From Escherichia coli (GTDB lineage Bacteria; Pseudomonadota; Gammaproteobacteria; Enterobacterales; Enterobacteriaceae): 64,000 nt of DNA. Positions 1 to 64,000 of this stretch are shown in pieces. The stretch's first letter is position 1. Each line of letters starts with the position of its first letter. A model generated the notes under the pieces. That model was given only the letters and a program-made list of their open reading frames with translations. It made no database searches and was not told where the DNA came from. The DNA lies in NCBI RefSeq assembly GCF_044647545.1, contig NZ_CP172818.1. The stretch is one strand, 5' to 3'. The position numbers were made by a program, and so were the translations under genes.

Positions 1-60
1 TGCGATCTTTTCCTGTGTGGTACGCCGTCTGCGTTTCTCCGGCCCTAAGACATCAATCAT
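1..60 (-). CDS. insC: IS2 transposase OrfA (InsC), N-terminal 20 codons only; partial at window edge
   Basis: Minus-strand ATG at 58..60 reads MIDVLGPEKRRRRTTQEKIA to the window edge. Confidence 0.7.
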   Translation of the reverse strand, partial: MIDVLGPEKRRRRTTQEKIA

Positions 61-151
61 CTGTTCTCCAATGACTAGTCTAAAAACTAGTATTAAGACT
101 ATCACTTATTTAAGTGATATTGGTTGTCTGGAGATTCAGGGGGCCAGTCTA
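1..151 (-). mobile_element. IS2 left end (partial; element continues upstream of window), terminal inverted repeat ending at 151
   Basis: Reverse complement of 61..151 matches the IS2 left end as I recall it (TAGACTGGCCCCCTGAATCTCCAGACAACC...), followed by the insC start. Confidence 0.85.
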
Positions 152-206
152 AACCCCAGAACTTACTTATGCTGATTCCGGTGCGAAAATTGTTAATAAA
201 GGTACT
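152..206 (+). pseudogene. ydbA: 55-bp ydbA autotransporter fragment trapped between IS2 and IS30
   Basis: Reads in frame (…[15 protein letters not shown]) into the ydbA frame that resumes after IS30 once one copy of the CT duplication is removed. Confidence 0.6.
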
Positions 207-1427
207 TGTAGATTCAATTGGTCAACGCAACAGTTATGTGAAAACATGGGGTTGCGGAGGTTTTTTGAATGAGACGAACATTTACAGCAGAGGAAAAAGC
301 CTCTGTTTTTGAACTATGGAAGAACGGAACAGGCTTCAGTGAAATAGCGAATATCCTGGGTTCAAAACCCGGAACGATCTTCACTATGTTAAGGGATACT
401 GGCGGCATAAAACCCCATGAGCGTAAGCGGGCTGTAGCTCACCTGACACTGTCTGAGCGCGAGGAGATACGAGCTGGTTTGTCAGCCAAAATGAGCATTC
501 GTGCGATAGCTACTGCGCTGAATCGCAGTCCTTCGACGATCTCACGTGAAGTTCAGCGTAATCGGGGCAGACGCTATTACAAAGCTGTTGATGCTAATAA
601 CCGAGCCAACAGAATGGCGAAAAGGCCAAAACCGTGCTTACTGGATCAAAATTTACCATTGCGAAAGCTTGTTCTGGAAAAGCTGGAGATGAAATGGTCT
701 CCAGAGCAAATATCAGGATGGTTAAGGCGAACAAAACCACGTCAAAAAACGCTGCGAATATCACCTGAGACAATTTATAAAACGCTGTACTTTCGTAGCC
801 GTGAAGCGCTACACCACCTGAATATACAGCATCTGCGACGGTCGCATAGCCTTCGCCATGGCAGGCGTCATACCCGCAAAGGCGAAAGAGGTACGATTAA
901 CATAGTGAACGGAACACCAATTCACGAACGTTCCCGAAATATCGATAACAGACGCTCTCTAGGGCATTGGGAGGGCGATTTAGTCTCAGGTACAAAAAAC
1001 TCTCATATAGCCACACTTGTAGACCGAAAATCACGTTATACGATCATCCTTAGACTCAGGGGCAAAGATTCTGTCTCAGTAAATCAGGCTCTTACCGACA
1101 AATTCCTGAGTTTACCGTCAGAACTCAGAAAATCACTGACATGGGACAGAGGAATGGAACTGGCCAGACATCTAGAATTTACTGTCAGCACCGGCGTTAA
1201 AGTTTACTTCTGCGATCCTCAGAGTCCTTGGCAGCGGGGAACAAATGAGAACACAAATGGGCTAATTCGGCAGTACTTTCCTAAAAAGACATGTCTTGCC
1301 CAATATACTCAACATGAACTAGATCTGGTTGCTGCTCAGCTAAACAACAGACCGAGAAAGACACTGAAGTTCAAAACACCGAAAGAGATAATTGAAAGGG
1401 GTGTTGCATTGACAGATTGAATCTACA
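207..1427 (+). mobile_element. IS30, complete 1221-bp copy
   Basis: Imperfect 26-bp terminal inverted repeats (TGTAGATTCAATTGGTCAACGCAACA at 207..232, about 23 of 26 matching at 1402..1427), 2-bp CT target duplication at 205..206 and 1428..1429, one long transposase ORF. Confidence 0.9.
269..1420 (+). CDS. insI: IS30 transposase InsI (383 aa, DDE family)
   Basis: 383-aa ORF filling IS30; N-terminal helix-turn-helix and C-terminal DDE region recognised as IS30 transposase. Confidence 0.9.
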   Translation: MRRTFTAEEKASVFELWKNGTGFSEIANILGSKPGTIFTMLRDTGGIKPHERKRAVAHLTLSEREEIRAGLSAKMSIRAIATALNRSPSTISREVQRNRGRRYYKAVDANNRANRMAKRPKPCLLDQNLPLRKLVLEKLEMKWSPEQISGWLRRTKPRQKTLRISPETIYKTLYFRSREALHHLNIQHLRRSHSLRHGRRHTRKGERGTINIVNGTPIHERSRNIDNRRSLGHWEGDLVSGTKNSHIATLVDRKSRYTIILRLRGKDSVSVNQALTDKFLSLPSELRKSLTWDRGMELARHLEFTVSTGVKVYFCDPQSPWQRGTNENTNGLIRQYFPKKTCLAQYTQHELDLVAAQLNNRPRKTLKFKTPKEIIERGVALTD

Positions 1428-4400
1428 CTGTTGAAATTCAGAATTTAGGTTTTGCTTTTGTTACTGGTGAAAATACAACAGGTATAAATAGTGGCACGAT
1501 CTCGTTATTACAAAATGGTAAAGATCCGGCACCGTCTCCCATTGTTTTACTGGCTACTAACGGAGGGAGCGCCACTAATGCAGGTACGATCACAGGTAAA
1601 GTGACGGAACAACATAGCGTATTTAACAAGTATTCAACGGGCACATCGAATTCATTTATTTTTAATAACGATGTCAGTAGCATAACAGGGTTAGTCGCTC
1701 AATCGAATAGCACAATTATCAATACTGACAGCGGCATCATTGATTTGTATGGTCGTGGTAGTGTCGGCATGCTTGCTATAGCAGATTCAACAGCAGAAAA
1801 TCAGGGTAAAATTACACTGGATTCTATGTGGGTAGATGCAAATGACACTACCGCAATGCGAGATATAGCTAGCAACAGCGCCATTGACTTCGGTACAGGT
1901 GTGGGAGTTGGTACTGATAGTTATAGTGGTGCAGGGAAAAATGCAACAGCAATTAACCAATTGGGCGGTGTTATAACTATTTATAACGCCGGCGCAGGTA
2001 TGGCGGCCTATGGCGCCAGCAATACAGTTATTAACCAGGGGACGATTAACCTCGAAAAAAATGGTAATTATGACGATAGTCTGGCAGCAAATACTCTGGT
2101 AGGGATGGCTGTTTATGAGCATGGTACTGCTATCAACGACCAGACGGGTGTTATCAATATCAATGTTGGTACTGGTCAGGCGTTTTATAACGATGGCACA
2201 GGAACAATTGTTAACTATGGTACAATCTGCACTTTCGGCGTGTGCCAATCGGGGAATGAGTACAATAATACAGATGATTTCACCTCACTGATCTATACCG
2301 GTGGCGATACGATTACACGAAGCGGAGAAACTGTAACGCTAAATAAATCTGCTGCTGTGACTGATAAGCTGGCTGGGAATGTTGTTAATAGCGGAACGCT
2401 TTCCGGTGATCAAATTACGGTATCAAGCGGTCTTCTGGAAAATACCAGCGGTGGCATCATCAATAACTTAGTAAAACTTGACAAGGGTGCCGTCATTAAA
2501 AATGCCGGGGTGATGACGAATAACGTCGATGTTAGCGGTGGAATCCTCAATAATGCCGGAGAAATGACTGCGCAAATTACCATGAATGCTGGTGCTGATA
2601 GTTCGTTAGTGAACAACACCGGAACCATCAATAAAATCGTGCAGAACGCGGGGGTATTCAATAATAGTGGCAGTGTAACAGGGCGGATGATGTCGGCTGG
2701 CGGGGTCTTTAATAATCAAACTGACGGGGCGATTATGAGAGGTGCTGCGCTGACAGGTACTGCAGTGGCAAATAACGAAGGAACCTGGAACCTCGGAAGT
2801 AGTAGTGAGGGTAACAACACCGGGATGCTGGAAGTTAATAATAATTCAGCTTTCAATAACCGCGGCGAGTTTATTCTTGATAACGACAAGAATGCTGTGC
2901 ACATCAACCAGTCCGGTACGCTTTATAATACCGGTCACATGAACATCAGTAATTCTTCCCACAACGGAGCCGTTAATATGTGGGGCGGAAATGGTCGTTT
3001 TATCAATGACGGAACGATTGATGTTTCTGCGAAGTCACTGGTAGTCAGCGCTAATAATGCCGGCGATCAGAATGCCTTCTTCTGGAACCAGGATAACGGG
3101 GTCATCAACTTCGATCACGACAGCGCCAGTGCCGTGAAAGTCACCCACAGCAACTTTATTGCCCAGAATGACGGCATCATGAACATCAGCGGCACCGGTG
3201 CTGTGGCTATGGAAGGTGATAAGAACGCGCAGCTGGTTAACAATGGCACCATCAACCTCGGTACCGCAGGCACTACTGACACGGGTATGATCGGTATGCA
3301 ACTCGATGCCAACGCCACGGCGGATGCGGTAATCGAAAACAACGGCACCATCAATATCTTCGCCAATGACTCGTTTGCATTTAGCGTACTGGGTACAGTA
3401 GGTCATGTGGTTAACAACGGCACGGTGGTGATTGCCGATGGGGTTACGGGTTCTGGACTGATCAAGCAGGGCGACAGCATCAATGTTGAAGGTATGAACG
3501 GTAACAACGGTAATAGCAGCGAAGTGCATTATGGCGACTATACGTTGCCGGATGTGCCGAAGCCCAATACGGTTAGTGTAACGTCGGGAAGTGATGAGGC
3601 TGGTGGCAGCATGAACAACCTCAACGGCTATGTCGTCGGTACCAACGTTAACGGCAGCGCCGGGAAGCTGAAGGTTAACAATGCCAGCATGAACGGCGTG
3701 GAGATTAACACGGGCTTTACCGCTGGTACGGCAGACACCACTGTGAGTTTTGATAACGTAGTGGAAGGTAGCAACCTGACCGACGCTGACGCCATCACCT
3801 CAACGTCCGTGGTATGGACTGCCAAAGGCAGCACCGATGCCAGCGGTAACGTTGACGTCACCATGAGCAAAAATGCCTACACCGATGTGGCAACAGATGC
3901 CTCGGTGAATGACATCGCGAAAGCACTGGATGCGGGTTACACCAACAACGAACTGTTTACCAGCCTGAACGTCGGCACGACTGCTGAACTGAACAGTGCT
4001 CTGAAACAGGTCAGCGGTAGCCAGGCGACCACGGTATTCCGCGAAGCGCGCGTGTTAAGCAACCGCTTTAGTATGCTGGCAGATGCCGCGCCGAAAGTGG
4101 GTAACGGTCTGGCGTTCAACGTTGTCGCGAAAGGCGATCCGCGTGCCGAGTTAGGTAATAATACCGAATACGACATGCTGGCATTGCGTAAAACTATCGA
4201 CCTGAGCGAAAGCCAGACGATGAGTCTGGAGTACGGTATCGCTCGTCTCGATGGTGATGGTGCGCAGAAAGCGGGTGATAATGGCGTTACAGGCGGTTAT
4301 AGCCAGTTTTTTGGCCTGAAACATCAGATGTCGTTCGATAACGGCATGAACTGGAATAACGCCTTGCGTTACGACGTTCACAACCTTGACAGCAGCCGCT

Positions 4401-4924
4401 CGATTGCATTTGGCAACACGAACAAAACGGCTGATACCGACGTGAAACAGCAGTACCTGGAGTTCCGCAGCGAAGGGGCGAAGACTTTCGAACCGAGCGA
4501 AGGACTGAAGGTTACGCCATATGCGGGTGTAAAACTGCGTCACACACTGGAAGGTGGCTATCAGGAGCGCAATGCCGGAGACTTTAACCTGAATATGAAC
4601 AGTGGCAGCGAAACGGCGGTGGACAGCATCGTCGGGCTGAAACTGGACTACGCAGGTAAAGACGGCTGGAGCGCTAGCGCTACGCTGGAAGGCGGGCCGA
4701 ACCTGAGCTACGCGAAGAGCCAGCGTACGGCAAGCCTGGCAGGCGCAGGCAGTCAGCACTTTAACGTCGATGACGGTCAGAAGGGCGGCGGCATCAATAG
4801 CCTGACAAGCGTCGGCGTGAAGTACAGCAGCAAAGAAAGTTCGCTGAATCTGGATGCGTACAACTGGAAAGAGGATGGCATCAGCGATAAAGGCGTGATG
4901 CTGAACTTCAAGAAAACGTTCTAA
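1428..4924 (+). pseudogene. ydbA: ydbA C-terminal portion: autotransporter passenger repeats plus beta-barrel translocator; gene disrupted by IS2 and IS30
   Basis: Open frame runs from the IS30 junction with no start of its own; Gly/Asn/Thr-rich repeats and a C-terminal barrel ending in F; annotated ORF 1601..4924 is the internal Met-start part. Confidence 0.8.
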
Positions 4925-4944
4925 TTTTTAGCATGTGATACCTA

Positions 4945-34048: not shown

Positions 34049-34269
34049 ATTAACTGTAAAGGTTTCTCTTCTTTTTTCTTCAAATGCCAAAACCCTTATA
34101 ATCTCTCAATACTGTCGCTCCAAACCTACTCTTCTTTTCGCGTCCCAGTTATAGTTATTAACAATCTCTTCCCATCCATTCAACACACTCAAACGCAATA
34201 CATTAAGTATTTCCCTCATCAAAAATCTGATCGTATGTGACAAAGACCGTGAACACACAGGAAAACACA

Positions 34270-35450
34270 TGCCTTCCACGCCGATACGTTTCTTCACAGA
34301 CCAAAGTCATTTGCCTGTGAAACACTACAGCATTTAAATCCATTAGCCCGTGTCAAAGAGCGTGAAATGGCGCTTCCGGCGCATGTCGTTTCGTTTCAAT
34401 CTCTCTGGCACGTCAGAAGAGAATCATGAGCCGTAATAAATACATCCCTTACGGGAAAATGCTTCCTCTGTTGAGTGAAAAACGCCACGAAACCAATGCT
34501 AAAGATCGCCCTCACAGCCATTCAACACACTGAAAGACCTTGAGCGCTTAAAAAACTTCTCCAGAAGCCTGCTTTTCCCCGATCAAAAAGCGGGGACAGA
34601 AGATGCATTCGCTACCCGCAGGGCGTTAAGCTCGACAGGAAAACAGCCGTATTTTTCGCCGAAACTTGGCTGGATGCGCTACCGGAATAGCCGTCAGGTC
34701 ACGGGTGTGTGAAAAATGTCACTGTCAGCCAGTCCTGCGTAAGGTACATCAGTATCAGACTGAAAATGAAGTATCAACTCCGTTCACCCTTCAGCATCAA
34801 TGGTCGGCTGGAGCGCGGGCTAAACTCGCCACGCTGTCAGAGCAAGCTTTGACCTGAAACAGTTTTCAGAAAAACCAGAAGAAGCTGGCGAGACTTCAGC
34901 GACAGTTAAGCCGCAAGGTCAAATTCAGCAATAACTGGCAGAAGCAGAAACGCAAAATACAGCGACTGCATCCTGTACGCAAATATCCGCAGGGACTACC
35001 TTCACAAAGTCACAACGACCGTCAGCAAAAACCACGCAATGATAGTCATTGAGGATTTGAAGGTCAGCAACATGTCAAAGTCAGCAGCGGGTACGGTCAG
35101 CCAGCCGGGGCGCAATGTCCGGGCAAAATCAGGTTTAAACCGTTCGATACTGGATCAGGGCTGGTATGAAATGCGCCGCCAGCTTGAGTACAAGCACCTG
35201 GCGTGGCGGTCAGGTGCTTGCTGCCGCCAGCGTACACAAGCCAGCGTTGCGCGTGCTGTGGTCATACAGCGAAAGAAAATCGCCTGTCACAAAGTAAATT
35301 CAGATGCCAGCATGTGGATATACAGCGAACGCCGATGAAATGCCTCGTAACATTTTAGCGGCGGGGCACGCCGTTCTTGCCTGTGGAGAGATGGTGCATC
35401 AGCCGCTCGTTGAAGCAGGAACCCCCCGAAATGATTTAGCGACAGCCTGA
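34270..35450 (+). pseudogene. insQ: Decayed IS200/IS605-family (IS609-like) tnpB / insQ-type gene
   Basis: TnpB-like peptide segments (…KLGWMRYRNSRQVTGV…, …KKLARLQRQLSRKVKFSNNWQKQKRKIQRLH…, …MIVIEDLKVSNMSK…) lie in different frames with in-frame stops; no ORF over 99 aa on either strand. Confidence 0.65.
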
Positions 35451-35487
35451 ACGTAGCAGGGATCCACGTCCTTCAGGGCGTGAGGAT

Positions 35488-36663
35488 TCAATATCGGTTT
35501 CTGTCAGCGATTAAATTCAACACCACGTAACAAACGCCTCCGGCAATTAATCCCCAAAACGCAGAACCAATCCCGGCCAGCGTCAATCCACTTGCCGTTA
35601 CCAGAAATGCCACCACCGCCGCGTCGCGCTCACGCTCATTATGCAGCGCCTGATACAAACTGCCGCCAATGGTACTCAACAGCGCCAGACCTGCCAGCAT
35701 CTGGATCCAACTTACGGGCAGGGCAGCCATCATCCCGGTAATGGCACTACCAAACAGACCTGCGAGCAAATAGAAAATGCCTGCAACGGCAGCTGCCAGC
35801 CAACGTTGATCTTTATCCGGATGCGCTTCCGGGCTTTGGCAAATAGCCGCGGTGATTGCCGCAATACCGACGGAATAAACGCCGAAAGGGGAAAAAACCA
35901 GTGCCAGCAATCCAGTAAATACAATTAATGGCGAAACAGGAGCCGAATATCCGGCTGCTTTCATTGCTGCGATACCCGGTGCGTTTTGCGATGCCATCGT
36001 CACCAGAAAAAGGGGGAGTGCAACGCTCAGGCTGTGAGCAAACGAAAAATCAGGGCTAATATAAGTGGGGAGAACGGGTTTAAAGACAACATCAGTTGTG
36101 ACAACGTCACCTTGCGCGATAACGATCACGCCCCCAATAATCATCGCGGCAATTACCGCATAGCGCGGCGCAACGGCCCTGGTTGCCAGCCATACCAGCA
36201 ACATACTGCCACACAACGTAAATTGACCATCCAGGCTCGCAAACGCCTGTAAACCAAAGCGTAATAAAATCCCGGCAAGCATTGCCGCCGCAAGCGAGTG
36301 CGGAATAATGCGCATCAGACGAGCAAAGAGTCCCGTTATGCCGCAGAGGACTATTAACGCGTTGGTGACAATAAAAACGCCGATGGTTTCGTTAAGTGTT
36401 AGTCCCTGCAATCCGGTGACCAACAAAGCCGCGCCAGGCGTTGACCATGCGGTGAGAACAGGTACGCGATACCATAATGTCAGAGCCAGCGTACTGACGC
36501 CCATTGCCAGCCCCAGCGCCGTCATCCAGCCAGAGATTTGTGCAGTGGTGGCTCCGGCGACAATCGCTGCTTGCCAGATTATTGCCGCTGAACTGGCGTA
36601 GCCAATTAATACCGCCAGAAACCCCGCCAGTAGCGTGGGCGGAGGAATAGAAAACAGACGCAT
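35488..36663 (-). CDS. ydcO: BenE-family (benzoate-type) inner-membrane transporter
   Basis: 391 aa from MRLFSIPPPTLLAGF…; highly hydrophobic multi-pass protein. Confidence 0.8.
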   Translation of the reverse strand: MRLFSIPPPTLLAGFLAVLIGYASSAAIIWQAAIVAGATTAQISGWMTALGLAMGVSTLALTLWYRVPVLTAWSTPGAALLVTGLQGLTLNETIGVFIVTNALIVLCGITGLFARLMRIIPHSLAAAMLAGILLRFGLQAFASLDGQFTLCGSMLLVWLATRAVAPRYAVIAAMIIGGVIVIAQGDVVTTDVVFKPVLPTYISPDFSFAHSLSVALPLFLVTMASQNAPGIAAMKAAGYSAPVSPLIVFTGLLALVFSPFGVYSVGIAAITAAICQSPEAHPDKDQRWLAAAVAGIFYLLAGLFGSAITGMMAALPVSWIQMLAGLALLSTIGGSLYQALHNERERDAAVVAFLVTASGLTLAGIGSAFWGLIAGGVCYVVLNLIADRNRY

Positions 36664-58474: not shown

Positions 58475-60109
58475 ATGTCGACTCGCTTATCCACCCTCAG
58501 CCATACCAGTGAAGGCCACCGCGTGTCGGTCCACTACGGCTATGACGATAAAGGCCGCCTGACCGGCGAACGCCAGACGGTGGAGAACCCGGAGACGGGG
58601 GAACTGCTGTGGCACCATGAGACCGGACATGCGTACAACGAACAGGGGCTGGCAAACCGCGTCACGCCGGACAGTCTGCCGCCGGTGGAGTGGCTGACCT
58701 ACGGCAGCGGCTATCTTGCGGGCATGAAGCTGGGCGGGACGCCGCTGCTGGAGTTCACGCGCGACCGCCTGCACCGTGAGACGGTGCGCAGCTTCGGCAG
58801 CATGGCAGGCAGTAATGCCGCATATAAACTGACCAGCACATACACCCCCGCAGGCCAGTTACAGAGCCAGCACCTGAACAGCCTGGTGTATGACCGTGAC
58901 TACGGGTGGAATGACAACGGCGACCTGGTGCGCATCAGCGGCCCGCGACAGACGCGGGAATACGGCTACAGCGCCACGGGCAGGCTGGAGAGTGTGCGCA
59001 CCCTCGCACCAGACCTGGACATCCGCATCCCGTATGCCACGGACCCGGCGGGCAACCGGCTGCCGGACCCGGAGCTGCACCCGGACAGTACACTCACAGT
59101 GTGGCCGGATAACCGCATCGCGGAGGATGCGCACTATGTCTACCGCCACGATGAATACGGCAGGCTGACGGAGAAGACGGACCGCATCCCGGCGGGTGTG
59201 ATACGGACGGACGACGAGCGGACCCACCACTACCACTACGACAGCCAGCACCGCCTGGTGTTCTACACGCGGATACAGCATGGCGAGCCACTGGTCGAGA
59301 GCCGCTACCTCTACGACCCGCTGGGACGGCGAATGGCAAAACGGGTCTGGCGGCGGGAGCGTGACCTGACGGGGTGGATGTCGCTGTCGCGTAAACCGGA
59401 GGTGACGTGGTATGGCTGGGACGGAGACAGGCTGACGACGGTGCAGACTGACACCACACGTATCCAGACGGTATACGAGCCGGGAAGCTTCACGCCGCTC
59501 ATCCGGGTCGAGACAGAGAACGGCGAGCGGGAAAAAGCGCAGCGGCGCAGCCTGGCAGAGACGCTCCAGCAGGAAGGGAGTGAGAACGGCCACGGCGTGG
59601 TGTTCCCGGCTGAACTGGTGCGGCTGCTGGACAGGCTGGAGGAAGAAATCCGGGCAGACCGCGTGAGCAGTGAAAGCCGGGCGTGGCTTGCGCAGTGCGG
59701 GCTGACGGTGGAGCAACTGGCCAGACAGGTGGAGCCGGAATACACACCGGCGCGAAAAGTTCATTTTTACCACTGCGACCACCGGGGCCTGCCGCTGGCG
59801 CTCATCAGCGAAGACGGCAATACGGCGTGGCGCGGGGAGTATGATGAATGGGGCAACCAGCTTAATGAGGAGAACCCGCATCACCTGCACCAGCCGTACC
59901 GTCTGCCAGGGCAGCAGTATGATAAGGGAGTCGGGCTGGTACTTATAACCGTCACCGGTACTACGATCCGTTGCAGGGGCGGTATATCACCCGGGACCCG
60001 ATTGGGTTGAGAGGTGGATATGGATATGTATCAGTATCCGTTGAATCCCATACAAGTGATAGACCCAATGGGGTTAGATGCGATTGAGAATATCATAATA
60101 TCAGGCTAA
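58475..60109 (+). pseudogene. rhsE: rhsE remnant: C-terminal part of an Rhs core with a frameshifted tail
   Basis: GC-rich ORF 58475..60010 with YD-repeat content (…[12 protein letters not shown]…[12 protein letters not shown]…); the conserved end (…[17 protein letters not shown]… and DPMGL) continues in the two other frames; no N-terminal half upstream. Confidence 0.8.
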
Positions 60110-61204
60110 TTAATTTATGCCGTATCTGGTGTACCTGGATTGATTGCTGCAAACAGCATTACTAACAGTGCTTACCAGTTCGGTTATGATATGGATGCTA
60201 TTGTTGGCGGAAGCTCATAATGGGGCCGCCGATGCAATGAGACATATCGTCACTTGATGTGTCGAATGACTAAGACATTTGGATCAAACAATAGCTGACG
60301 TGATAGGAAAAATCATGAGGCGGCAGGGATAACAAGGTCAGCCAGCTAAAGAAAAGTAATCATGGATCTAAAAAATAACACTGTCGGTATTGCTTGTGGC
60401 GATTTTTGGCCAAATGTAGCGATGATGTATTGTAAAATATAACACTGGGAAAACTCTTCGGGTTAGATGGTATAAAAGCAGATAACTCCAATAAAAACAA
60501 AGCAAGGGAGTTTCAGACGCTTCAAATTATTAGAGGCAAACTTGTCATTTTTTTTAATTACCCTTTGTTTATTTGTTGTTTACAATCTTCTGGGTTTGAT
60601 AACAATTCAAATTCTTGATATTGTCATTTTATGGACATAAATACCTAAAGAGCGTTGAGATATCTTTCTGAAAAAAATATTATTTATAAAATAATTAATG
60701 ACCAAAAAATTAGTAGAGGGAATGGTCATTTTATAAGTATAATGGTTAATAATTACAGGACGCACTGTGGAGTGGTTGATAAACTTAATTTTTTCAATGA
60801 TATTCTTTATAGCGTGCGATTAAAAAACATTAAAGCAAACTTGCAGAATATGGAGTTCTGCGCTAAAAAATAATGCGTATTTTAGTGATAAAAACAAGAA
60901 GGCTAGTTATAAAATAATTAATTATGGAGAACTATCACGATGTTGATTATTATGATAACAATTTGAAAAATGAAGCTTTTTGACTGGATTGGTAAATGGT
61001 CATAATGAACAACACCAGAAAGTAGAAAAATATAAAATACATACAGAAGATACTAGAAGCAAGGGACGGGCAGGGCAATATTATGAAAATTGTGATGTAA
61101 AATCACGATTTTCATCTTGGCTTGAACGCTAGCAGGCTATTAAAATTTAACCTTTGGATAAATGGAAAAAGATAAAAAAGGACCAAGTGATATTTTAAGT
61201 TTGC

Positions 61205-62290
61205 TTGATTATATTTAGCTATCTCTATATACGACAACAAGGAAGCTTAAACATAAATCTATCCGCTATTTTGTTTCTCACCGTATGTGAGAATTGCGAG
61301 GCCCATGAGTGGCAGGAAATTGAAGATTTTGGACATGAAAGACTTGAATGGCTAAAGAAATATGGTGATTTTGATAATGGGATTGCGGTCGATGACACCA
61401 TTGCACGCGTTGTGAGTAACATTGACAGTTTGGCCTTTGGAAGATGTTTATTGAATGGATGCAGGAGTGCCATGAAATCACTGATGGTGAAATTATAGCA
61501 ATAGATGGAAAGACCATAAGAGGCTCCTTTGATAAGGAAAGAAAAGGAGCAATCCATATGGTGAGTGCATTCTCAACCAAATGGTGTTGTACTCCGGCAG
61601 GCGAAACGGAAGCCAAAAGTAATGAGATTACAGCCATTCCACAGTTGCTTAACCTACTGTATTTAAAGAAAATTTTGATAACCATCGACGCTATGGGCTG
61701 TCAGAAAGATATCGCTTCGAAGATTAAAAGATAAAAAAGCAGATTATCTTCTGGCAGAAAAGGCAATCAGGGGAAATTACATCATGCATTCGAGGAAAAA
61801 TTTCCTGTAAATGTGTTTTCTAATTATAGGCGATTCGTTTAGTACGCAGGAGATAGTCATGGAAGAAAAGAAACACGTTTTCATATTGTAGTAACGTAAC
61901 GCCTGAACTTTTGTGATTTTGAATTCAATGGAAGGGATTAAAAAAGCTTTGTGTAGCATTGTCATTCAGGCAGAAGAAAGAAGATAAATCAGCAGAAGGT
62001 GTAAGCATCCGATACTATATTTCATCAAAGGATATGGATGCTAAAGAATTTGCACATGCTATCAGAGCGCACTGGCTGATCGAGCACAGTCTTCATTGGG
62101 TGTTAGATGTAAAAATGAATGAAGATGCCGCCGGATAAGAAGAGGAAACGCAGCCTAAATAATATCTGGAATAAAGAAGATGGCACTGAATTTATTAAGA
62201 GATTGCAAAGACATTAAGGGTGAAGAGGAAAAGAAAGAAGGCTGCGTTAAACACAGGGAAAGATCATCAGAAGTTCACTTTTTGTACTAA
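61205..62290 (+). pseudogene. yncI: Degenerate H-repeat (ISAs1-family) transposase copy
   Basis: ORFs 61205..61498 and 61444..61734 plus downstream fragments align piecewise to the ydcC protein (…WQEIEDFGHERLEWLKKYGDFDNGI…, …IAIDGKTIRGSFDK…AIHMVSAFS…) with several frameshifts and stops. Confidence 0.65.
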
Positions 62291-62397
62291 ATAATTCGCA
62301 TTTTATGTTTAAAAATTGAGATATTCCTCATTACCTGAAGCTGTTTTTTATTGCTTATACATGATCAAATACTCCTTACATAATTAAGGAGAACAAA

Positions 62398-63533
62398 ATG
62401 GAACTTAAAAAATTGATGGAACATATTTCTATTATCCCCGATTACAGACAAGCCTGGAAAGTGGAGCATAAATTATCGGACATTCTACTGTTGACTATTT
62501 GTGCCGTTATTTCTGGTGCAGAAGGCTGGGAAGATATAGAGGATTTTGGGGAAACACATCTCGATTTTTTGAAGCAATATGGTGATTTTGAAAATGGTAT
62601 TCCTGTTCACGATACCATTGCCAGAGTTGTATCCTGTATCAGTCCTGCAAAATTTCACGAGTGCTTTATTAACTGGATGCGTGACTGCCATTCTTCAGAT
62701 GATAAAGACGTTATTGCAATTGATGGAAAAACGCTCCGGCACTCTTATGACAAGAGTCGCCGCAGGGGAGCGATTCATGTCATTAGTGCGTTCTCAACAA
62801 TGCACAGTCTGGTCATCGGACAGATCAGGACGGATGAGAAATCTAATGAGATTACAGCTATCCCTGAACTTCTTTACATGTTGGACATTAAAGGAAAAAT
62901 CATCACAACTGATGCGATGGGTTGCCAGAAAGATATTGCAGAGAAGATACAAAAACAGGGAGGTGATTATTTATTCGCTGAAAATGAAACCAGGGGCGGC
63001 TAAATAAAGCCTTCGAGGAAAAATTTCCGCTGAAAGAATTAAATAATCCAGAGCATGACAGTTACGCAATGAGTGAAAAGAGTCACGGCAGAGAAGAAAT
63101 CCGTCTTCACATTGTTTGCGATGTCCCTGATGAACTTATTGATTTCACGTTTGAATGGAAAGGTCTGAAGAAATTATGCGTGGCAGTCTCCTTTCGGTCA
63201 ATAATAGCAGAACAAAAGAAAGAGCCAGAAATGACGGTCAGATATTATATCAGTTCTGCTGATTTAACCGCAGAGAAGTTCGCCACAGCAATCCGAAACC
63301 ACTGGCACGTGGAGAATAAGCTGCACTGGCGTCTGGACGTGGTAATGAATGAAGACGACTGCAAAATAAGAAGAGGAAATGCAGCAGAATTATTTTCAGG
63401 GATACGGCACATCGCTATTGATATTTTGACGAATGATAAGGTATTCAAGGCAGGGTTAAGACGTAAGATGCGAAAAGCAGTCATGGACAGAAACTATCTG
63501 GCGTCAGTCCTTGCGGGGAGCGGGCTTTCGTAA
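62398..63533 (+). pseudogene. ydcC: H-repeat-associated (ISAs1-family) transposase, split into two frames in this sequence
   Basis: ORF 62398..63003 ([18 protein letters not shown]…) and ORF 63069..63533 are contiguous parts of one protein; the span is 1136 bp (not a multiple of 3), with the frame change near 62985..63003. Confidence 0.65.
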
Positions 63534-63912
63534 TCTTTCCCTGGAGTGGCAAAGAACTGGTGGTGAATAATCCCGTTATTAGCAGACTTTTAACAATATG
63601 ATTAAGCTGCATCTTAAGCGTCTCCAGAATGGACTTTTATTGGGGGTATTTACGGATAAAAATTTTTGTGAGGGGAAAAATAAATATAATGGGCGTTAAT
63701 AAATTGGCAAGCCGGGAATTTTTTTTTTTTTAATGGCATGTTGGCAAAAAATATATTCTGCAAGTTTTTTTTTTTGGCTTTTTTTTTAAAAGGGTGTAAA
63801 ACAAACCTGTACAAATTCAAGTAGGCATTATTGCCGTAAAAAAGCATCACCGGACACATAACATTCACAACGTGTGTTAATTTTACTGACATCTTTCAAA
63901 AGGAGCACAATC

Positions 63913-64000
63913 ATGCCGCACATAGACATTAAATGTTTTCCACGTGAACTGGACGAACAACAAAAAGCAGCACTTGCTGCAGATATTACCGACGTTATTA
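63913..64000 (+). CDS. pptA: Tautomerase PptA (4-oxalocrotonate tautomerase family), N-terminal part; continues past window end
   Basis: ATG at 63913 behind AAAGGAGC; reads [29 protein letters not shown], starting with the catalytic Pro typical of the family. Confidence 0.8.

Follow-up and report, generated by a model that had tools for sequence, protein, structure and literature searches.

In Escherichia coli K-12 two H-repeat genes lie side by side next to rhsE: the pseudogene yncI (b1459) and ydcC (b1460), which encodes an H repeat-associated putative transposase. The gene order is rhsE'-ydcD-yncO-yncI-ydcC-pptA, the ydcC element begins with its left inverted repeat directly behind the truncated yncI, and ydcC is an intact ORF of 378 aa. 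H-repeats are associated with Rhs elements and listed in ISfinder, and their transposition has not been observed (PMC3032704). ISEc1, also named H-rpt (Hinc repeat of Rhs elements), is a 1.29-kb element of the ISAs1 family with CAGGGAAAGAT as terminal inverted repeat and one transposase gene with a PF13808 and PF01609 architecture. Insertion of ISAs1-family elements generates direct target-site duplications of about 8–10 bp. A further close relative, FH07_RS11905 of E. coli ST648 (NZ_CP008697.1), is 1136 nt long and lies immediately in front of a spacer and pptA; PGAP annotates it as "ISAs1 family transposase, frameshifted".

Here we analyse the corresponding locus in a stretch of 64,000 nt of E. 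coli DNA (contig NZ_CP172818.1), which is called the window below. This locus harbours the well-known pair of RhsE-associated H-repeats of E. coli, with the position, gene order, and orientation that yncI and ydcC have in K-12. Both copies, here called copy 1 (yncI position) and copy 2 (ydcC position), are ordinary dead ISAs1-family (H-repeat) transposase genes next to the RhsE/pptA locus. With considerable confidence we interpret copy 2 as a real ISEc1-like pseudogene killed by a compound mutation, copy 1 as an old yncI remnant, and the adjacency of the two as artefactual.

Copy 2 is a complete ISEc1-like element

The ORF listing and the domain scans of the window revealed two ISAs1-type transposase genes, both on the + strand. 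These scans and our alignments confirmed the earlier note on this DNA, which had placed two H-repeat transposase copies at the yncI and ydcC positions. The coordinates given below for both copies and their parts, for the lesion, for the K-12-type block with yncI, and for the spacer in front of pptA all refer to the + strand.

In the Pfam scan the N-terminal half of copy 2 matched PF13808 (2.8e-34) and PF01609 (3.2e-14), and the C-terminal half matched PF01609 (9.9e-9). Positions 3–106 of the PF01609 profile fell on the N-terminal half, positions 128–198 on the C-terminal half. The NCBIfam model NF033564 (cutoff 70 bits) was also divided between the two halves, which covered profile positions 1–166 (245 bits) and 170–314 (143 bits), respectively. 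Both the domain architecture (DDE_Tnp_1_assoc, PF13808, and DDE_Tnp_1, PF01609) and the NCBIfam model are those of the ISAs1 family, and copy 2 also has the family's length of about 1.2–1.5 kb and its short terminal inverted repeats. In neither copy is the transposase encoded by one continuous ORF, which has about 378 aa in ISEc1, and the two copies are therefore pseudogenes, dead representatives of the ISAs1 family and not active elements.

Identity and homology breakpoints defined copy 2 as a complete ISEc1-like element of 1290 bp at 62254–63543, one base shorter than the intact copy of 1291 bp. The left terminal inverted repeat, CAGGGAAAGAT (62254–62264, 11 nt), is 100% complementary to 63533–63543 and forms a perfect 11-bp pair with the right repeat, ATCTTTCCCTG (63533–63543), which shares one base with the stop codon. 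Homology with K-12, with ST648, and with strains without the IS breaks off at the ends of the element: that to K-12 stops at 63543/63544, at the right end of copy 2, and in IS-less strains homology to the downstream spacer begins at 63543. The nucleotide identity was 97.4% to K-12 ydcC and about 98.1% to the gene that PGAP names "ISAs1-like element ISEc1 family transposase". Copy 2 thus shares length, terminal repeats, and the architecture of a single transposase gene with ISEc1, but its ORF is interrupted and its flanks show no direct target repeat. We read the flanks in the window (...GCGTTAAACA to the left of the IS and GAGTGGCAAA... to its right) and in ST648 (...CCCCCCCCC and GAGTGG..., respectively) and saw no target-site duplication around copy 2 in either. 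This is expected if a flank was later rearranged or deleted.

The transposase gene of copy 2 carries two lesions

The reading frame of copy 2 (62398–63533) spans 1136 bp, which is 1137 minus 1, as had been counted before. Its N-terminal ORF (62398–63003, 201 aa) contains DDE_Tnp_1_assoc and the first half of the DDE domain and ends with seven aberrant residues (ENETRGG) followed by TAA. The C-terminal half (62988–63533) comprises 181 codons (NQGRLNK...GSGLS and stop) with 97% identity to residues 198–378 of YdcC, and the longest ATG-initiated ORF within it encodes 154 aa (63069–63533). It is read in the –1 frame (equal to +2) relative to the upstream ORF and not in the +1 frame, as the earlier note had it.

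The same note had attributed the split to one indel. Alignments to K-12 ydcC and to intact ISEc1 identified instead a compound lesion at 62980–62987. The T of GTA (Val195) is lost between 62980 and 62981 (GTA>G-A), and 4 nt past this deletion a G>T change at 62985 converts GGA (Gly197) to TGA (62985–62987) in the original frame. The intact copies (K-12 ydcC, LR-06 ydcC, and ST648 ISEc1) read GCT/GCG GTA AAA GGA AAC/AAT; the window reads GCT G-A AAA TGA AAC. Comparison with the reference ydcC, which had been proposed as a check, thus showed an intact K-12 gene with GTA AAA GGA at the site of the lesion. Because of the TGA, adding one base back still leaves a stop, and the restoration of a 378-aa ORF by one extra base, envisaged earlier, is impossible.

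Compared to the three intact copies, copy 2 has six synonymous and three missense private changes in addition to the nonsense change and the 1-bp deletion. This tally indicates that most of the divergence is older than the inactivation. Both halves are otherwise clean, which also suggests that inactivation is comparatively young. The description of copy 2 as a very recent pseudogene therefore held for its pseudogene status and its clean halves, and we grade its age as comparatively young, of the age of the clade. Synthetic 71- and 72-mers representing alleles with only the deletion or only the TGA had no match in 5426 complete E. coli genomes, so that the two changes may have come in either order. 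The mutated 11-mer TCGCTGAAAAT is complementary at 10 of 11 positions to 63392–63402 in the same gene, and TGAAAATG is present as a direct copy at 62589–62596. It seems to us quite unlikely that both lesions come from one template-switch event and/or that the 201-aa fragment acts in trans on ISEc1.

The DDE catalytic domain is split over two polypeptides, and neither product of copy 2 would thus be able to function as transposase. With two intact terminal inverted repeats, copy 2 would be at most a non-autonomous passenger. In natural carriers an intact, 98.06% identical ISEc1 sits 2.3 kb upstream of the split copy, and it is conceivable that an intact ISEc1 copy could move copy 2 in trans.

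The close proximity of an intact ISEc1 in natural genomes and the retention of a complete DDE_Tnp_1_assoc N-terminal domain would also fit a 201-aa fragment that has been preserved to regulate or inhibit the transposition of ISEc1 in trans. By analogy with truncated transposases derived from other IS elements such a role may be imagined, but we regard it as very improbable: three of the private changes are missense, the sampled carriers are close relatives and give no sign of selection, and the fragment is indistinguishable from the product of a neutral pseudogene.

The split allele is inherited and not a sequencing error

We compared copy 2 to public E. coli sequences. The window was 100% identical to ST648 over 62258–63648. 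An exact 71-mer across the lesion was found in 75 of the 5426 complete genomes, while the junction of IS end and spacer was common to 83 genomes. The exact 201-aa product was encoded on 117 public contigs and the exact 154-aa product on 110. The 1290-bp element was 100% identical in four independent assemblies (ST648 and three further loci, L006–L008) and 99.8–99.9% identical in two more, and all six independently assembled loci contained the lesion. FH07_RS11905 and the corresponding genes of about 75 complete genomes share the right flank of spacer and pptA with the window. The left neighbourhood differs and consists, in ST648 and all other carriers that we read, of vgrG, an intact ISEc1, and a 150-aa ORF instead of the K-12-type yncI. 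Upstream vgrG, intact ISEc1, and a hypothetical ORF were likewise present on 23 of 23 contigs with the 201-aa ORF.

The earlier note had left open that the base missing from copy 2 was a sequencing or assembly error. The gene would then really be an intact 378-aa ydcC, reading GTAAAAGG at 62980–62987. Artefact-like indels do occur elsewhere in the window, and an intact ydcC occupies the same position in K-12 and about 2000 other genomes. Nevertheless, we consider an error at this site extremely improbable. The identical allele recurs in the 75 complete genomes, the exact truncated ORFs are on more than 100 contigs from several sources, the whole element is invariant in the four independent assemblies, and copy 2 lies within a stretch without private differences. 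Furthermore, the nearby G>T change places the TGA in the original frame, so that an added base does not give an intact gene.

On these comparisons the split allele is real and inherited within a clade of E. coli to which ST648 belongs. It is already annotated as frameshifted in RefSeq and in this sense already known; literature searches on H-rpt, ISAs1, and ydcC gave nothing on it beyond the general statement on H-repeats (PMC3032704). As the sampled carriers are close relatives, conservation of the allele says nothing about selection.

A stable allele with two open halves, the downstream one in the –1 frame, resembles the organisation of IS1- and IS3-family elements, in which a first ORF is followed by another one in the –1 frame. 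Programmed –1 ribosomal frameshifting could in principle join the two ORFs of copy 2 into one transposase. However, the –1-frame TGA (62985–62987) is located just upstream of the point of resumption and leaves only 62988–63000 (AACCAGGGGCGGC) for a shift. No X XXY YYZ slippery heptamer is in phase in AACCAGGGGCGGC, between the –1-frame TGA and the 0-frame TAA (63001–63003), in contrast to what is seen in the overlaps of IS1 and IS3. A fusion would replace the conserved VKG (NF033564 positions 167–169) by ENE and further out-of-frame residues. Copy 2 also belongs to another IS family, in which each intact member has one ORF: the close relatives K-12 ydcC, LR-06 ydcC, and ST648 ISEc1 are single 378-aa ORFs. 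The split organisation is not conserved in the family and is represented by one allele only, in the 75 of 5426 genomes. ISAs1-family elements are described with a single ORF and are not known to use frameshifting. The –1-frame TGA, the lack of a slippery heptamer, and the one-ORF relatives led us to reject programmed frameshifting, to which we assign next to no probability.

Copy 1 is a truncated yncI remnant with additional private damage

Domain scans and alignments placed copy 1, a yncI-type ISAs1/H-repeat remnant, at 61072–62253. Its left end, CAGGGCAA(t)AT(t)ATGAAAATTG at about 61072, resembles that of copy 2 and reads CAGGGCAAGATCATGAAAATTG in K-12. Towards its 3' side, copy 1 breaks off at 62253, some 13 codons ahead of the expected stop, and has no right inverted repeat. 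The truncation falls exactly where the left repeat of copy 2 starts, and the truncated yncI of K-12 likewise abuts the left repeat of the ydcC element. The previously described gap of about 100 bp between the copies is correct as a distance between ORFs (107 bp, 62291–62397), but the elements themselves abut, and the gap is the 5' untranslated part of copy 2.

Short ORFs of copy 1 at 61205–62290 matched PF13808 and PF01609, with about 50% amino acid identity to K-12 YdcC. The alignment to YdcC ran through four frames, with at least four frame switches and several stops. The yncI of K-12 has far fewer lesions: one frame is maintained over residues 1–250, and only about two frameshifts and three stops are present. 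Between K-12 and LR-06 a single nucleotide differs across 60000–62253. In the window this region contains about 150 private differences, and 64 indel events were counted for 60000–61960 versus K-12. The best match to 61150–61450 among the complete E. coli genomes did not exceed 91.3%. The heavy decay reported earlier for copy 1 is thus present in the form of frame switches and stops, but much of it is private to the window. Most of this decay is most likely of non-biological origin, as judged from the sequence comparisons.

Copy 1 itself corresponds to the yncI of K-12, an old H-repeat remnant, and derives from an ISAs1 lineage other than that of copy 2. A recent tandem duplication of copies 1 and 2 was ruled out by the 50–56% amino acid identity and a patchy nucleotide identity of 72–84%. 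In its fragmented state and without a right end, copy 1 is not expected to have transposase function.

The window is a probable composite of K-12-type and ST648-type sequence

The two copies had been taken for genuine neighbours. Alignment of the window to K-12 MG1655 and ST648 did not support this assumption and placed copy 1 in a K-12-type block within otherwise ST648-identical sequence. Positions 1–4939 are 100% identical to K-12 MG1655, contain the end of IS2D, IS30C, and fragment 3 of ydbA, and represent a region that is absent from ST648. Positions 4916–34052 together with 35492–58491 are 99.99% identical to ST648; these about 52 kb contain four SNPs and not a single indel. Between these two segments a K-12-only IS609 block (34053–35491) has ST648 flanks, and its edges are exactly at structural breakpoints. 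The second K-12-type block, rhsE'-ydcD-yncI (58492–62253), replaces the ST648-type vgrG, intact ISEc1, and 150-aa ORF; its edges are the exact structural breakpoints to ST648, which is without the block. The sequence from the right end of the IS to pptA (spacer, 63544–63914) is again of the ST648 type, and its first 280 bp (63545–63823) are absent from K-12, where no such spacer precedes pptA.

The spectrum of changes differed strongly along the window. In the IS609 block (34053–35491) 83 deletions, no insertions, and 25 substitutions were found (indel/substitution ratio 3.3, transition/transversion ratio 3.2), and the error density dropped from left to right. Positions 60000–61960 had 34 deletions, 30 insertions, and 60 substitutions (both ratios 1.07). 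The backbone showed 17 indels in total and about 1290 substitutions, with an indel/substitution ratio of 0.00–0.02 and a transition/transversion ratio of 1.7–1.9. Both ydcD and yncI were riddled with private indels, which broke ydcD into ORFs of 32, 72, and 50 aa. In the spacer the centre (63649–63800) had private changes towards poly-T and poly-A, while the edges were 100% ST648; compared to six natural loci, the spacer showed 94% identity and its flanks 100%.

The damage is limited to three patches of the window. Generalised poor assembly quality was ruled out, since 46 kb of the backbone had three SNPs and no indels versus ST648. Unpolished repeats in a hybrid assembly were also unconvincing as a cause, because the multi-copy Rhs core and copy 2 are clean and the normally single-copy ydcD-yncI region is damaged. 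Within the K-12-type regions the damage is uneven: 58492–59999 and 61961–62253 are nearly clean, and 1–4939 is perfect. One simple error process can therefore not explain everything.

yncI next to the split allele was found in none of the 5426 complete genomes and on none of the 23 longest contigs with the 201-aa ORF that we read. The window may nevertheless be faithful and represent a natural recombinant of the ST648 clone that has acquired K-12-type IS609 and rhsE'-ydcD-yncI segments, both truly hyper-decayed. Rhs/vgrG regions and IS copies are hot spots of recombination, and the K-12-type yncI-ydcC tandem occurs in about 2051 genomes. IS200/IS605-family elements can insert at specific targets and excise precisely. 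We nevertheless judge a natural recombinant unlikely, because the edges of all K-12-type blocks are structural breakpoints and the flanks are without K-12-type SNPs, and also because positions 1–4939 match MG1655 completely, including IS30C and IS2D inside ydbA. The numerous deletions of the IS609 block without a single insertion, the thinning of its errors from left to right, indel-to-substitution ratios at least 50-fold above the backbone, and an ST648-only spacer of which just the centre is smoothed towards poly-T also argue against it, as does the absence of the arrangement from the genomes and contigs just mentioned.

We infer from these data a composite window of K-12 MG1655 and ST648 sequence, produced by templating on K-12 or otherwise. 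In a composite window copies 1 and 2 are probably not true neighbours. The adjacency of yncI and the split ydcC, the broken ydcD, and most of the extra decay of copy 1 are most likely products of assembly or composition.

Discussion

On our reading, copy 2 at the ydcC position is an ISEc1-like IS of the ISAs1 family, and its only transposase gene was killed by the loss of one T and a G>T change four bases downstream that created a TGA. Copy 1 is the yncI remnant, 3'-truncated exactly at the start of copy 2, and the K-12-type block that carries it was most likely placed in otherwise ST648 sequence by assembly or composition, for example by templating on a K-12 reference. The locus differs from K-12 in the ydcC copy, which has a deletion and a TGA in place of an intact ORF.

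Features in 1–4939, 34053–35491, 58492–62253, and 63649–63800 should be read with a composite and locally corrupted window in mind. As a clean marker, the compound lesion identifies the clade that has the IS copy beside the pptA spacer; it is present in 75 of the 83 genomes with this junction. The biological importance of the locus is very small: a dead IS lies beside an older dead one at a well-described Rhs-associated locus.

Composite Make-Up of the Window and the IS609 Block

The first 4939 nt of the window were 100.00% identical to E. coli K-12 MG1655 and comprised the end of IS2D, IS30C/insI2, and ydbA fragment 3 of that strain. The region corresponding to 1-4939 is lacking in the ST648 genome (NZ_CP008697.1), and at 4916-4940 the window changed over to 99.99% identity to ST648. 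This makes the window, judged by sequence identity, a K-12/ST648 composite.

A K-12-type IS609 (yncK/insQ) was present at 34053-35491 between flanks of the ST648 type. The edges of the insert coincided exactly with the K-12 IS609 boundaries, and ST648 has no insertion sequence at this site. Compared with K-12, the block carried 83 deletions, no insertions, and only 25 substitutions. Its left end was CT-rich and could not be aligned, and the density of errors dropped rightward. This damage does not look like natural decay.

Lesions in ydcD and in the Split IS Copy

The ydcD gene of K-12 and of the comparison strain LR-06 is intact and encodes 160 aa. In the window (about 60516-61004, inside 60000-61000) it was disrupted by private single-base insertions and deletions, leaving ORFs of 32, 72, and 50 aa. 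Lesions of the same type were seen in the yncI remnant of the window.

The mutated site of the split ISEc1-like copy, TCGCTGAAAAT (62975-62985), was complementary at 10 of 11 positions to ATTTTCAGGGA (63392-63402), 406 nt downstream, and a direct copy of TGAAAATG was found at 62589-62596, 390 nt upstream of the site. These matches could hint at a templated origin of the compound mutation, or they could have arisen by chance in A/T-rich sequence.

Surroundings of the Split IS Copy

In the natural loci carrying the split copy (L003 1525-5000 of ST648, and L006-L010), an intact ISEc1 in the same orientation was located 2.3 kb upstream. Between the two copies, just after vgrG, lay an ORF of 150 aa, for which Pfam gave no match. 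This layout, with two IS copies around an ORF, resembles a composite transposon.

The spacer between the split copy and pptA had about 18 private changes at 63649-63800 that replaced mixed sequence by runs of T and A; in one instance, GGGAACTTGATGTTTTCTTAATGG had become GGGAATTTTTTTTTTTTTTAATGG. The six natural loci agreed with each other over this stretch while the window differed from all of them; the spacer edges were 100% ST648. Since K-12 lacks the 280-bp spacer (window 63544-63823; about 7964 in the K-12 locus), its ydcC element directly adjoins the pptA upstream region. The spacer was present in about 524 genomes, and only 83 of those had the IS adjoining it; what precedes the spacer in strain 2D is an alkyl/aryl-sulfatase gene. 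Such a pattern points to a deletion next to the IS, or to a local history of another kind, in the K-12 lineage.
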